NCBI GenBank assembly: GCA_965219245.1
Contig: OZ244722.1
Location: 3,938,947-4,002,946, forward strand
DNA from: Dehalococcoidia bacterium
GTDB lineage: Bacteria; Chloroflexota; Dehalococcoidia; Lucifugimonadales; VXLM01
Length of the DNA stretch: 64,000 nt
Direction of reading: 5' to 3'
How positions within the stretch are numbered: the stretch's first letter is position 1; each line of letters begins with the position of its first letter. Both the position numbers and the translations under genes were made by a program. Below are positions 58,026 through 62,497 of this stretch, piece after piece. Below the pieces are notes generated by a model, which was not told where the DNA came from, ran no database searches, and saw only the letters and a list, made by a program, of their open reading frames with translations.

Positions 58026-58304
58026 ATGGTCGAAAAAACTTTCTCTGTTACCCTACCCGACTATATTCTCCCGGGCTTTGGCTGGCAGGAGTCGGAAGCG
58101 CCCTATCGCATCCGAGAAGCATTAGTGATGGAACTGCTTCGGCTCGACCGCATATCCGAAGCTGAAGCTGCCGAATCGCTTGAACTCGACCGATGGGACC
58201 TGCTGACCGTGATGGGAAGGTACCGGATACCCGCCATTCGAATCACCCCTGAAGAATTGAGAGACGAACTTGCTAGGAGCATCGAAGACGCTAAACCGAG
58301 ATGA
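58026..58304 (+). CDS. UPF0175-family antitoxin
   Basis: REALVMELLRLDRISEAEAAESLELDRWDLLTVMGRYRIP is typical of UPF0175. Confidence 0.7.
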   Translation: MVEKTFSVTLPDYILPGFGWQESEAPYRIREALVMELLRLDRISEAEAAESLELDRWDLLTVMGRYRIPAIRITPEELRDELARSIEDAKPR

Positions 58305-58768
58305 TTGTATCCGACAGCGGACCAATTATTGCCCTCAGCAGAATTGGACGCATGGACATATTGAGGCGTCTCTTCGGACAAGTCATTGTACCGAACGCCG
58401 TATATGAGGAACTTGTAATCGCAGGCAAAGGGAAGCCCGGCGCTGCCGAAGTGAGGCGTAGTTCATGGATTCAAAGCCGCGAAGTGAGGAATCGAGAGGA
58501 CATGATTGCGTTCCCATCAAGCCTTCACAGAGGGGAACGAGAGGCGATTGTCCTTGCTCACGAGTTTGGGATACCGTTACTCATTGATGAAAGGCGAGGC
58601 AGGCGGACGGCGGTAGAAATGGGAATTAATGTGATGGGAATCCTCGCCATTCTTGCTCAAGCTCATAAAGAAAGAATCATTGAGGATGTACCCTCGTTGA
58701 TACAGGATCTTCTAAACGCTGGTTATTGGATAAACCCCGAAGTCGTAGATGCATTCCTCGCAAGTTGA
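58301..58768 (+). CDS. DUF3368-family PIN-like nuclease (toxin candidate)
   Basis: VSDSGPIIALSRIGRMDIL, VPNAVYEEL, GEREAIVLA, LIDERRGR. 4-nt overlap with the UPF0175 gene. Confidence 0.7.
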   Translation: MIVSDSGPIIALSRIGRMDILRRLFGQVIVPNAVYEELVIAGKGKPGAAEVRRSSWIQSREVRNREDMIAFPSSLHRGEREAIVLAHEFGIPLLIDERRGRRTAVEMGINVMGILAILAQAHKERIIEDVPSLIQDLLNAGYWINPEVVDAFLAS

Positions 58769-58784
58769 AGAAAGGAGACACACC

Positions 58785-59846
58785 ATGTCACTCCAAGAGA
58801 CAATGACCCCCAGAGAACGTGTGCTGAACGCCCTCGCGGGCAAGCCGGTCGACAGGACGCCCGTGTCGAATCCCACGAATGTGGCGACCGTCGAGCTTAT
58901 GGACATGGTCGACGCGCCGTTCCCGGACGCCAACCGCGACCCGGAGATGAACGCGCGACTCGCCGCTACGGGCTACACCGAGCTCGGCTTCGACTCGATC
59001 ATGCCCTACTTCACCATCATTCAGGAGTCGTCGGCGCTCGGCTGCGAGATGCAGTGGGAGGAGAAGGACAACTGGCCCACCGTGCGCATGAACAACCCGA
59101 TCTGGGACGGCCCCGACGACGTGCACATCCCCAGCGGGTTCCTCGAGCACAAGGACAACGTCGCCATCACCCGCTCCCTCTCCATCCTGCAGCGGGAGTT
59201 CGGCGACGAGGTCGCCATCATCGGCAAGACGATGGGGCCTTGGACCCTCGCCTACCACGTCTTCGGCGTGGAGAAGTTCCTGCTCATGTCCATCGACGAC
59301 CCGGCCATGACCCTGGAGACGCTCCACAAGCTCAAGGAGATATCGGTCCTCTTCGGCCAGGCGCAGATCGACGCCGGGGCCGACGCCCTCACCTTCCCCG
59401 ACCACGCGACCGGCGACCTCGTGAGCGGCGCGTACTACGACCGCTTCCTGCTGGAGATTCACCAGGAGATGGTTGAGCGTCTTCAGGCGCCGTTGATCCT
59501 TCACATCTGCGGCAAGACCGTCGATCGGATGGCAGCCATCGCCAAGAGCAACATGGCCGCATTCCACTTCGACTCCAAGAATGATCCGCAGGAGGCAATG
59601 GACACCGTCGACGGCGGCATCCAACTCGTTGGCAACATAAACAACCCCGTCACGCTGTACTCGAAGGGGCCGGAGGAGGTCCGCGCCGAGGTCTATCGCG
59701 CCCTTGATGCAGGGGTCAACATGATCGCCCCGGAGTGCGCGATTCCCCTTGCCACGAAGCTCGAAAACCTCCTCGAAATTCCCCAGGCCGTCAAGGACTG
59801 GCACGAGGAGCACGACGGCGAGAACGGCAACGGCGCGTCGGCGTAG
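58785..59846 (+). CDS. uroporphyrinogen-decarboxylase-family methyltransferase (MtaA/MtbA/CmuA-like, methylcobamide-dependent)
   Basis: MTPRERVLNALAGKPVDRTPV, GPWTLA, the HICG zinc-ligand region, APECAIP. AAAGGAGA precedes ATG 58785. Confidence 0.75.
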   Translation: MSLQETMTPRERVLNALAGKPVDRTPVSNPTNVATVELMDMVDAPFPDANRDPEMNARLAATGYTELGFDSIMPYFTIIQESSALGCEMQWEEKDNWPTVRMNNPIWDGPDDVHIPSGFLEHKDNVAITRSLSILQREFGDEVAIIGKTMGPWTLAYHVFGVEKFLLMSIDDPAMTLETLHKLKEISVLFGQAQIDAGADALTFPDHATGDLVSGAYYDRFLLEIHQEMVERLQAPLILHICGKTVDRMAAIAKSNMAAFHFDSKNDPQEAMDTVDGGIQLVGNINNPVTLYSKGPEEVRAEVYRALDAGVNMIAPECAIPLATKLENLLEIPQAVKDWHEEHDGENGNGASA

Positions 59847-59883
59847 CCCGCGAATTGCCGAGTTGGGCTTGAAAGCGGAACAC

Positions 59884-60262
59884 GATTGTTTTCGATAAGT
59901 CACATAAACGATAATAACGGCCACAACTCTTTTCGCTTCCGCTAATAAGGAACGGCGTGGCAGCGGCCTCTGAGCGAAAATGCCGGCCTCATGGCCGTCC
60001 GGCGGAAGGGATTGTTTTCGTAAAGTTACATAAACGATAATAACGGCCATGACTCTTTTCGCTTGCGGTAACAAGGAACGGCGTGGCAGCAGCCTCTGAA
60101 CGAAAACGTCAGCCTTATGGCCGTCCGGTGAAAAGACTTGTTTTCGATAAGTCGCATAAATGATAATAACGGCCATGATTCTTTTCGCTTCCGCTAATAG
60201 GGAATGGCGTGACAACAGCCTCTGAACGAAAACGCCAGCCTCATGGCCGTCCGGTGAACTGT
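59884..60262. repeat. three tandem copies of a 126-bp unit (about 85% identity by eye)
   Basis: Unit starts at 59884, 60010 and about 60136. Each contains TGTTTTCG..CATAAACGATAATAACGGCCA..CGAAAA..ATGGCCGTCCGG. Confidence 0.85.
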
Positions 60263-61369
60263 CCTGGGGGCTATCAGGCCTATGTGCCGTCCCCGCTCCC
60301 TCCACGCCTGATGTGGGATGAAGGACTCACCCTCAGTCTCTCATCCGCCGACCGGGCTATCGGCAGGCTTGCGGGCGAAGGACGGCGCTTGCCTAATCCC
60401 CACCTCTTGATACGGCCCTTCGTCCGCAAGGAGGCAGTCCTGTCGAGCCGCATTGAGGGAACCCAGGCGACCCTGGGAGAGCTGCTCGCTGCCGAGGCGG
60501 GCGCCGCCGTGGAGCGAAGCCCTGACGACCTGCGCGAGGTAGGCAACTACGTGGCTGCCCTGGAATATGGCCTCGAACGCCTAGAGACGCTGCCCGTGTC
60601 GCTGCGGTTGGTGCGCGAGATGCACGAACGCCTCATGCGCGGCGTCAGGGGCGACGTGGCCGCGCCCGGGGAGTTCCGGCGCACCCAAAACTGGATCGGA
60701 CCTCCCGGATGCACGCTGAACGACGCCACCTATGTTCCCCCACCCCCCTCGGAACTCATTGCCTGTTTGGATGCATGGGAACGGTTCCTGTATGACGAGA
60801 GACCGCCGCCGCTGGTGCACGCCGCTCTAGTCCACTCCCAATTCGAGGCGATTCACCCGTTTCTCGACGGCAATGGCCGAGTTGGACGCCTGATCATTAC
60901 CCTGCTGCTGGTCAAGCGAGATATCATCCCCTCACCGTTGCTCTATCTGAGCGCCTACTTCGAGGCCACGCGGGAGGAATACTACGCTCGGCTCCTCAGC
61001 ATGACGGAGCGGGGAGAATGGGAGGAGTGGCTGACCTACTTCGTGAGAGGTGTCGCCCTTCAGTCTGAAGACGCCGTAACCAGGATTCAGCGTATCGACG
61101 ACCTGCTCTCCCTGTGGAAGCGAGAGGTGTCCGGCAGCCGGTCCCAGTTCCCTGAGAAGGTGCTGGACCTCTTCGCAGAGAATCCCTTCTGGACATTGAG
61201 GGGCATAGCTGGCAGACTGAACGTGGCGTTTACGACAGCCCAGCGTGCCATTGACCGCCTGGAAGAGTTGGGCGCCATCGCCCAAGTCGGGAAGGCTCGA
61301 CGCAACAGGGTGTACTGCGCCGGGGCCGTTCTTGACGTCTTGGAAGAGCCGCTCCACCTGCCGGGTTAG
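60254..61369 (+). CDS. Fic/DOC-family protein (AMPylase-type Fido domain + C-terminal winged helix)
   Basis: HPFLDGNGRVGRL matches HxFx(D/E)GNGRxxR. The N-terminal YQAYVPSPLPP is typical. Start uncertain: GTG 60254 or GTG 60209, both inside repeat unit 3. Confidence 0.8.
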   Translation: MNCPGGYQAYVPSPLPPRLMWDEGLTLSLSSADRAIGRLAGEGRRLPNPHLLIRPFVRKEAVLSSRIEGTQATLGELLAAEAGAAVERSPDDLREVGNYVAALEYGLERLETLPVSLRLVREMHERLMRGVRGDVAAPGEFRRTQNWIGPPGCTLNDATYVPPPPSELIACLDAWERFLYDERPPPLVHAALVHSQFEAIHPFLDGNGRVGRLIITLLLVKRDIIPSPLLYLSAYFEATREEYYARLLSMTERGEWEEWLTYFVRGVALQSEDAVTRIQRIDDLLSLWKREVSGSRSQFPEKVLDLFAENPFWTLRGIAGRLNVAFTTAQRAIDRLEELGAIAQVGKARRNRVYCAGAVLDVLEEPLHLPG

Positions 61370-61453: not shown

Positions 61454-62497
61454 ATGCCAAGAGTTATCGATTCACCAGAAGAGTTCACCATCGTCGGGGA
61501 GAATATTCATGCCACCCGCGTCCTTCTCCGCAACGGGCGGCGCGCCAAGACACTCGAAGACGGGACCGAGGTCGTGCCGTTCAGGGGACCGAACGGCGAG
61601 CGGCGTATGCTCACCGTCCCCGAGTGGTACAAGTCCACGCAGCCCTACCAGCAGAACCAGATCAAGCATTTCCTCATCGCCATGCGGAAGGGTATCGAGG
61701 ACGATGCCGACGAGCGCGAGGAGGGCAAGGCGTACATCCAGTACGAGGTACGAAGGCAGATACGCGCGGGGGCCAAGTATCTCGACATCAACCCCGACGA
61801 GGTGCACTACGACCTTGAGACCCAGAAGGCCTGCATGAGGTTCGCCGTCGAGGCCGTGCAGGAGGTCTCCCCTATTCCGCCGTCGATAGACTCATCGAAT
61901 TCCGAAATCATCGAGGCGGGACTGACGGCGTACGACGGCTCCGCCGGCAGGCCGATCATCAACTCCGTCGCGGCAGAGCGCATGGAAGCCCTCGATATGG
62001 TCGTCGAGCACAACGCCCGCATGGTCCTCATGTGTACCGGCCCCGACGGCATGCCGCAAAACGACGAGGAGCGAGTCGACAACCTCAAATTCATCATGGA
62101 GCACGTGCAGTCGAAGGGCATCCCCATGGACGACATCTACGTCGACGGCATCATCTTCCCGATCTCCGTCGATCCGCAATACGGGAACCACTACTTCGAC
62201 GCCGTCCGCTCGATCCGCGAGCAGTACGGGAATGACATTCACATCGGCATGGGTCTCAGCAACGTCTCGTTCGGTATGCCTGAGCGACGGCTCCTGAACG
62301 ACACCTTCATCTACCTCGCACTTGAAGCGGGAATCGACGCGGGAATTCTCGACCCCATCGCGACAAAGCTCCATAGGGTATTCGCTCTCGACACCGAGTC
62401 TGAGCCGGTAAAGCTGGCCCTGGACGTCCTCGAAGGCCGAGACGACTTCTGCATGAACTACATCATGGCCTACCGCGACGGCAGGCTGAAGACATAA
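61454..62497 (+). CDS. pterin-binding (DHPS-like) methyltetrahydrofolate:corrinoid methyltransferase module
   Basis: IVGENIH, LDINPD, SIDSS, INSV and GMGLSNVSFG resemble the MeTr/AcsE/MetH pterin domain. Confidence 0.75.
   Translation: MPRVIDSPEEFTIVGENIHATRVLLRNGRRAKTLEDGTEVVPFRGPNGERRMLTVPEWYKSTQPYQQNQIKHFLIAMRKGIEDDADEREEGKAYIQYEVRRQIRAGAKYLDINPDEVHYDLETQKACMRFAVEAVQEVSPIPPSIDSSNSEIIEAGLTAYDGSAGRPIINSVAAERMEALDMVVEHNARMVLMCTGPDGMPQNDEERVDNLKFIMEHVQSKGIPMDDIYVDGIIFPISVDPQYGNHYFDAVRSIREQYGNDIHIGMGLSNVSFGMPERRLLNDTFIYLALEAGIDAGILDPIATKLHRVFALDTESEPVKLALDVLEGRDDFCMNYIMAYRDGRLKT

Follow-up and report, generated by a model that had tools for sequence, protein, structure and literature searches.

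The three 126-bp repeats that precede a Fic gene in the window, i.e. the whole stretch of 64,000 nucleotides of Dehalococcoidia DNA that was analysed, are probably a tandemly triplicated operator-promoter module through which this SoFic-like Fic protein represses its own gene. One module would comprise a weak sigma-70-type promoter (TTGTTT-N18-GATAAT), four binding boxes, a Shine-Dalgarno (SD) sequence, a GTG codon and codons 1-17 of Fic. Dimeric Fic would bind the boxes via its C-terminal winged helix and repress its own transcription. Slippage or unequal recombination would have placed three promoters and twelve boxes in series before one intact gene, and the distal copies would act as extra copies of operator and promoter, shifting the set-point of autorepression.

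Anatomy of the array

The array and its surroundings have the following features.

58749 to 59846, plus strand: URO-D/MtaA-like methyltransferase gene, left flank (Pfam PF01208, E 8.6e-63)
59884 to 60261, plus strand: tandem array of three 126-bp units (Tandem Repeats Finder, alignment, homologous arrays in six sister species)
59884 to 60009, 60010 to 60135 and 60136 to 60261, plus strand: units 1, 2 and 3
59957 to 60040, plus strand: pseudo-start of unit 1, with SD sequence, GTG and a 27-codon ORF copying Fic codons 1-17 (translation)
60083 to 60163, plus strand: pseudo-start of unit 2, a 26-codon ORF that stops within box 2 of unit 3
60209 to 61369, plus strand: Fic gene, 386 residues, with its GTG start inside unit 3 (Pfam Fic_N and Fic)
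61454 to 62497, plus strand: pterin-binding (MtrH-like) methyltransferase gene, right flank (Pfam PF00809, synteny)

Tandem Repeats Finder (TRF) delineated positions 59884-60258 as a repeat of period 126, with 3.0 copies, 86% matches, 0% indels and a score of 561. The three units align without gaps at pairwise identities of 84-85%. Both results bear out the original prediction, which had placed the unit starts at 59884, 60010 and about 60136 and estimated the identity by eye at about 85%. The rest of the 4.4-Mb genome (60% G+C) lacks the unit, the array being its sole locus.

The anatomy of the array and the homology of its units with the 5' end of the Fic gene are direct observations. Every unit contains, in order, promoter-like hexamers together with four boxes, an SD sequence, a GTG codon and codons 1-17. 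Each unit thus represents, in one copy, the control region at the 5' end of Fic followed by these codons. In the Fic frame, the 3' third of every unit reads V-[AT]-[AT]-A-S-E-R-K-x-x-P-x-G-R-P, and the coding part of unit 3 continues without a break into NCPGGYQAYVPSPLPP. The last unit had indeed been described as running into Fic; its 3' end corresponds to codons 1-17 of the gene.

The 362 nt upstream of the Fic start consist of the array only, and the ORFs of 26-27 codons found there copy the Fic N-terminus. That of unit 1 ends at a TAA within box 2 of unit 2, and all three plus-strand frames across the array contain stops. The coding capacity of these pseudo-start ORFs is not conserved: distal copies in sister species have GGG in place of GTG and a 1-nt deletion.

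Other types of repeats were considered. The array had been said not to be a CRISPR, and this holds true: the 126-bp units directly abut head to tail without unique sequence between them, rather than forming short repeats separated by unique spacers. An iteron or centromere was dropped as a candidate, there being no replication or partition gene nearby and the unit being homologous to the Fic 5' end.

On the minus strand, a 505-codon ORF (58788-60305) antisense to the URO-D gene is open through the whole array, which might then encode part of a protein with 42-residue repeats. One frame is open throughout the array both in the window species (G000) and in its sister species G005, but it is interrupted in three of five sister arrays (G008, G001 and G009), and the ORF runs antisense through the well-conserved URO-D gene, as is typical of shadow ORFs at 60% G+C. 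The ORF is a shadow ORF, and we give practically no credence to a repeat protein.

The Fic protein

An SD sequence, AGGGA, lies 6 nt before the GTG at 60209, and the resulting N-terminus, VTTASERKRQPHGRPVNCPGGY, aligns with the N-termini of orthologs. The pattern RxPHGRxVxCPGGYxAFVP is shared by the orthologs of Alphaproteobacteria, Latescibacterota, Planctomycetota and others, which begin 14-20 codons ahead of GGY. The shared N-terminus and start position therefore identify GTG 60209 as the Fic start. In an AlphaFold2 model built on 52 orthologs (mean pLDDT 92.4, pTM 0.91), residues 11-20 have a pLDDT of 93.

The protein contains HPFLDGNGR, in agreement with the active-site motif HPFx[D/E]GN[G/K]R; H216, P217, F218, D220, G221, N222, G223 and R224 are invariant in the 52 orthologs. 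The same polypeptide harbours SSRIEG, which corresponds to the class II inhibitory motif (S/T)xxxE(G/N) and sits in helix 65-82 and adjoining residues of the model; S79, S80, I82, E83 and G84 are likewise invariant in this set. A C-terminal winged helix is confidently predicted at approximately residues 314-379 (helices 314-324, 330-337 and 341-354; strands 327-329, 358-360 and 368-370), and this fold is directly seen in the model. Fic thus belongs to class II and, with a winged helix at its C-terminus, is of the SoFic/CccR type.

Full-length Foldseek comparisons gave TM-scores of 0.83 with the Mycobacterium marinum FIC protein (7cb8) and of 0.77-0.83 with SoFic (SO_4266 of Shewanella oneidensis; PDB 3EQX and 3ZCN). 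SoFic shares 23-24% identity with the window Fic and matches it in sequence over residues 45-362. Fic is not a SoFic equivalog, as it scores 151 bits against NCBIfam NF046030, for which the cut-off is 550. CccR (PDB 7XUX) has the same set of domains (Foldseek E 1.6e-12) but is a looser match, with a TM-score of 0.58 and a phmmer match limited to residues 73-294; the sequence search agrees with the fold matches.

Given the intramolecular SSRIEG, no separate antitoxin is expected. A type II toxin-antitoxin pair, consisting of Fic/Doc and a separate antitoxin, was rejected, as no small antitoxin gene adjoins Fic.

Boxes in the putative promoter region

Four boxes were delineated in each unit.

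59886 to 59894, plus strand (also 60012-60020 and 60138-60146): box 1, TTGTTTTCG, forward half-site
59909 to 59917, plus strand (also 60035-60043 and 60161-60169, TGATAATAA): box 2, CGATAATAA, reverse-type half-site
59927 to 59935, plus strand (also 60053-60061 and 60179-60187, TTCTTTTCG): box 3, CTCTTTTCG, forward half-site
59940 to 59948, plus strand (also 60066-60074 and 60192-60200, CGCTAATAG): box 4, CGCTAATAA(G), reverse-type half-site

All four are half-sites of one motif, which reads YTNTTTTCG in the forward and CGAWAATAR or CGCTAATAR in the reverse orientation. They form two inverted pairs. Boxes 1 and 2 (23 bp from centre to centre) cover the -35/-10 region, and boxes 3 and 4 (13 bp from centre to centre) the leader and the SD sequence. 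Box 1 overlaps the -35-like TTGTTT, box 2 contains the -10-like GATAAT, and box 4, CGCTAATAAG, abuts the SD sequence AAGGA. Box 4 of unit 2 is degenerate (CGGTAACAA, 60066-60074). At the level of sequence, the arrangement is that of an inverted-repeat operator overlapping its own promoter.

We aligned 14 full units from seven species to compare boxes and spacers. The conservation of the boxes is a direct observation: the four (TTGTTTTCG, CGATAATAA, CTCTTTTCG and CCGCTAATAAGG) have pairwise identities of 90-95%, i.e. 93, 95, 90 and 91% for boxes 1 to 4, respectively, and the spacers 41-68%, with 66% in the spacer adjacent to box 1. The composite patterns box1-N13-15-GATAATA and box3-N3-5-CG[CA][TA]AATA were not found outside the array in the 4.4-Mb genome.

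The TTGTTT-N18-GATAAT combination reported earlier is present in all three units. A simple sigma-70 scan of the region yielded no promoter reaching the threshold, because these hexamers match at only 8 of 12 positions. A terminator scan gave only two weak hits, both on the minus strand and formed by the b' and a' sequences described below. The hexamers and the boxes lie at offsets shared with Fic orthologs of other phyla, which argues for two of the earlier proposals, namely that a weak promoter faces Fic and that the array represents iterated protein-binding sites controlling this gene.

Complementary sequences and RNA structure

The original prediction further described two pairs of complementary sequences per unit in the interleaved order a-b-a'-b', and one of its readings of the array was a tandem structured RNA with a pseudoknot in each unit. 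The four sequences do exist. In unit 2, they are GTTTTCG (a, 60014-60020), ACGGCCAT (b, 60043-60050), CGAAAAC (a', 60101-60107) and ATGGCCGT (b', 60117-60124); unit 1 has CGAAAAT for a' and ACGGCCAC for b, so that only 7 of the 8 b-b' pairs form there. When one unit is shuffled with its dinucleotides preserved, interleaved complements of 8 and 7 nt arise in only 0.5% of cases (a lone 8-mer complement in 9%, a lone 7-mer in 32%). This is in favour of an RNA, as is the b-b' stem that units 2 and 3 form in their minimum-free-energy folds. The three units are copies of each other, and therefore they are not independent evidence for the complementary boxes.

The other analyses argue against such an RNA. 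Rfam 15, searched in E-value mode with positions 59000-61000, returned nothing above noise (only one 19-nt hit, E 2.3). On the plus strand, the folds of the single units are like those of shuffles (z-scores of -0.04, -1.05 and -1.22); the best minus-strand z-score, -2.49, was obtained for one unit only. Among the 14 units, compensatory changes are absent from helix a-a', and in 9-10 units the inner pairs of b-b' (36/115 and 37/114) do not form. Changes on both sides affect one of 15 pairs, and the observed covariation score was reached by 55 of 500 shuffles. RNAalifold run on the 14 units predicted two small local hairpins (-9.5 kcal/mol, with a covariation term of -0.49).

Two of the complementary sequences are part of the Fic coding sequence.

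60227 to 60233, plus strand (also 59975-59981, as CGAAAAT, and 60101-60107): a', CGAAAAC, Fic codons E-R-K-R
60243 to 60250, plus strand: b', ATGGCCGT, Fic codons H-G-R within the conserved PHGR

In the Fic-proximal units of G008, G015, G005 and G001, a' is CGAAAGC or CGCAAAC, and the ERKR residues are unchanged; a' thus changes silently in four of five sister species, and in the fifth, G009, it is CATAAAC. This pattern points to a constraint at the level of the protein and not of an RNA. As for the other partners, b (positions 60169-60176 of unit 3) closely follows the -10-like box and falls within the least conserved of the variable spacers (46% identity), and a is included in box 1 with the -35-like hexamer, so that a transcript initiated at the unit's own promoter, after GATAAT, would not contain it. 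A pseudoknot RNA is therefore highly improbable.

The candidate operator motif in other phyla

A search for relatives with the window Fic returned 80 loci. In the 200-nt upstream regions of 51 orthologs, TATTTTC is found in 24 (1.4 in shuffles), TTTTCGA in 21, GATAATA in 19 (1.6 expected) and CGCTAAT in 15 (1.1 expected). The motif common to several phyla is a 9-bp half-site present in both orientations, forward YTWTTTTCG and reverse CGAAAATAG (CGAWAATAR), with variants CGATAATA and CGCTAATAG. A locus has 3-6 half-sites, which alternate every ~21 bp across the -35/-10 region; two that are closer together (~11-13 bp) immediately precede the SD sequence.

The motif of box 1 is thus also present upstream of Fic orthologs in other phyla. 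In an alphaproteobacterial ortholog (L031), the boxes, box 3 included, are as far from the conserved GGY codons as those of the window unit. Two other loci (L027 and L039) have clearer promoters, TTGAYT-N17-TAATAT/TATGAT, whose -35 and -10 elements are on the same boxes.

We counted half-sites around the starts of closer and more distant homologs.

Orthologs with at least 54% identity, 46 loci from many phyla: on average 3.1 half-sites within the 190 nt that surround the start; shuffles 0.07-0.18; control region 200 nt further upstream 0.3-0.8
Homologs with less than 54% identity, 33 loci: mean of 0.30 half-sites; shuffles 0.13; control region further upstream 0.10

The half-site patterns were derived from the very loci on which they were counted; independent contrasts are provided by the shuffled sequences, the region further upstream and the homologs of low identity.

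Homologs below 54% identity have other palindromes at the same place, including TTGAAG/CTTCAA, GATACTTTC/GAAAGTATC, CTTTGAAAG/CTTTCAAAG, GTGTAAAT/TTTACAC and GCCAATAAG/CTTATTGGC. The co-variation of the motif with the subfamily is directly observed, and the operator sequence itself thus appears to change with the Fic subfamily. Each of the distant winged-helix Fic subfamilies represented by L073, L075, L079, L085-L094, L097 and L099 has its own inverted repeats around the promoter.

A conserved neighbour might be an alternative regulator. No protein family is common to more than 4 of 42 loci outside Dehalococcoidia, so that Fic alone accompanies the motif. The boxes could also be recognized by another factor, such as a global regulator of the host or a special sigma factor: boxes 2 and 4 resemble -10 elements, and it is from sequence comparisons that Fic is the presumed binder. 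However, in many phyla and next to unrelated neighbours, the motif goes with the Fic subfamily, it is present in both orientations with several copies per locus, its composite patterns are confined to the array in the genome, and two relatives of Fic, CccR and SoFic, are reported to bind their own promoters. We consider recognition by another factor to be very unlikely.

Amplification of the control region was found in other loci. In a Dehalococcoidia locus (L024, OZ220748.1), the same operator module is repeated in tandem with a period of 82 (2.8 copies according to TRF, approximately four sets of boxes by eye). This array is located ~90-315 nt upstream of its Fic start and leaves out the coding part, and its genomic surroundings are different. 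In a Thermoanaerobaculaceae locus (L098, CAVZUZ010000009.1), the gene of a Fic homolog with 51% identity is preceded by a 72-bp module in 1.9 tandem copies. That module is ~25-160 nt upstream of the start and is built on a different palindrome, GCTTTGAAAG...CTTTCAAAGC. Arrays of 126-bp, 82-bp and 72-bp modules are thus present in three lineages, and in G019 there is a second operator module further upstream. The L024 and L098 amplifications are independent of that of the window.

Insertion site and variation within the genus

The comparison covered all 16 species of the genus. The unit is present in the window species and in six others, with the gene order DUF4268, sometimes a UPF0175/PIN pair, URO-D, array, Fic, pterin-binding and B12-binding genes. 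Nine of the 16 species (L101-L109) have an empty site, in which the URO-D gene is followed by 47-160 nt and then by the pterin-binding gene. The array and Fic therefore represent an accessory insertion in a corrinoid methyl-transfer cluster. Some of the empty sites contain a small hairpin element, GGCGGGTTTGAAACCCGCCC. Just upstream of the URO-D gene of the window is a UPF0175/DUF3368 (PIN-like) gene pair (58026-58768); it is found in G008 and is missing at the same position in several sister species.

The number of copies varies from one to at least three across the genus. The window species has three full units. In G008, one unit is followed by a ~120-nt insert and then by two units. In G005, a truncated unit carrying an 85-nt hairpin insert is preceded by one unit and followed by another, and G001 and G009 have a truncated unit and a unit. 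In G015, the array is divided between two contig ends by an inserted repeat. In G004, a lone unit follows the URO-D gene, and Fic is absent from the 7.6 kb fetched downstream.

Several details of these loci can be added. The 85-nt insert of G005 (L014) and G001 (L015) is G+C-rich, forms a strong hairpin, GCCCGGCTCTCCCTCAAGCGGAGAGGGCTGGG, and replaces the 3' half of the distal unit; it looks like a small REP- or MITE-like element, and the G008 insert differs from it. In G015, the insertion is inside box 3, with TCTATACTTTGTACA at both junctions (L012 and L018, at the ends of contigs C63 and C14). Both contigs end nearby, which suggests that the insert is a repeated mobile element that broke the assembly. 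The single unit of G004 (L017, contig C24) has a degenerate start and is followed by an unrelated Cys-rich ORF. The pterin-binding and B12-binding genes are absent from the same 7.6 kb, which indicates that a deletion or rearrangement left one unit behind. Two pattern scans of metagenomes, with box 3-box 4 and with box 2-box 3-box 4, gave no hits.

Proximal units of different species are 83-86% identical, compared with 84-85% among the three units of the window species. Given these similar values, the duplications are about as old as the species. The boxes are 90-97% identical within both the proximal and the distal groups of units, with the same pattern in both. In the distal units, the spacers have fallen to 41-65% across species, and the boxes are kept at 90-97%. 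Three of the distal units (in G008, G004 and G015) have GGG for GTG, and these three and a second one of G008 (G008_2) have a 1-nt deletion. In the distal copies, the duplicated codons are thus in decay and the boxes are retained.

An alternative is that the distal copies are neutral leftovers of slippage, units 1 and 2 being decaying relics and only the Fic-proximal module being at work. The distal units of sister species without start codon and reading frame would fit this explanation, as would the range of copy numbers. Two observations count directly against our own model in this respect: the truncations, the inserts of 85-120 nt and the inserted repeat indicate that distal copies are at least partly dispensable, and the window itself has a degenerate box 4 in unit 2. 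Nevertheless, neutral decay would hardly account for distal boxes that remain nearly identical across species next to diverging spacers, gene conversion would homogenize the spacers as well, and at least two other lineages have amplified the operator module independently. We regard neutral relics as unlikely.

A related earlier suggestion was that of a satellite created upon insertion of Fic. It was half correct: the array is part of the inserted Fic module and was amplified from the module's own 5' end, but the conservation of the boxes across species is unexpected for junk DNA. That the distal boxes are kept while spacers and copied codons drift suggests a continuing role for the additional operators and promoters, a notion supported by the independent amplifications at L024, L098 and G019. 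Most likely, the distal copies serve as additional operators and promoters that tune the expression of a potentially toxic AMP-transferase.

Discussion

We infer that Fic binds the boxes and represses its own gene, that the promoters of the array are used and that the number of copies may have an effect. Autorepression by Fic is proposed because of the conservation of the motif, its co-variation with the subfamily, the lack of any other protein that travels with it and the precedents of CccR and SoFic.

CccR of Yersinia pseudotuberculosis represses its own promoter at two inverted AGATAATCAT boxes near the -35 and -10 elements, to which it binds as a dimer with its C-terminal HTH domain (PMC9755527). 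Like the window Fic as proposed here, it is both a class II Fic enzyme and its own repressor, and its 10-bp inverted boxes contain GATAAT (PMC9755527). CccR has one pair of boxes with centres 36 bp apart, whereas the window module has four boxes, with distances of 23 and 13 bp, and is triplicated. In addition, CccR is an effector of a type VI secretion system, and nothing points to such a role for the window Fic.

According to a 2026 preprint, dimeric SoFic binds the 100-bp region preceding its own start codon, and it AMPylates EF-Tu (bioRxiv 10.64898/2026.07.09.737422). The text consulted defines no operator sequence for SoFic, and no tandem amplification of its promoter is reported. The arrangement is also reminiscent of autoregulated type II toxin-antitoxin operators, where a potentially toxic enzyme is likewise repressed at repeated palindromes over the promoter and a mobile gene likewise carries its own operator. 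Unlike in those systems, there is no antitoxin gene with the window Fic: the SSRIEG helix is the inhibitor, and the DNA-binding domain is within the enzyme.

Knowledge of self-repression by winged-helix Fic proteins comes from one case with footprints, CccR, and from one study of binding, on SoFic. In a limited full-text search of the literature, we found no description of the present operator consensus or of a tandemly amplified module of this kind. The present work adds a candidate operator consensus for a Fic subfamily spread over many phyla and evidence that the operator sequence changes with the Fic subfamily. The upstream regions of the distant subfamilies could serve directly to match recognition helices to their operator sequences.

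What was suspected to be a new RNA is best explained as a regulatory duplication. One may speculate, and we do so only tentatively, that amplification of the module is selected rather than accidental, providing a heritable copy-number dial on the repression and switching of a toxic AMP-transferase. The genus offers a natural series of one to three copies of the control module, which may be used to test the tuning of autorepression by operator number.
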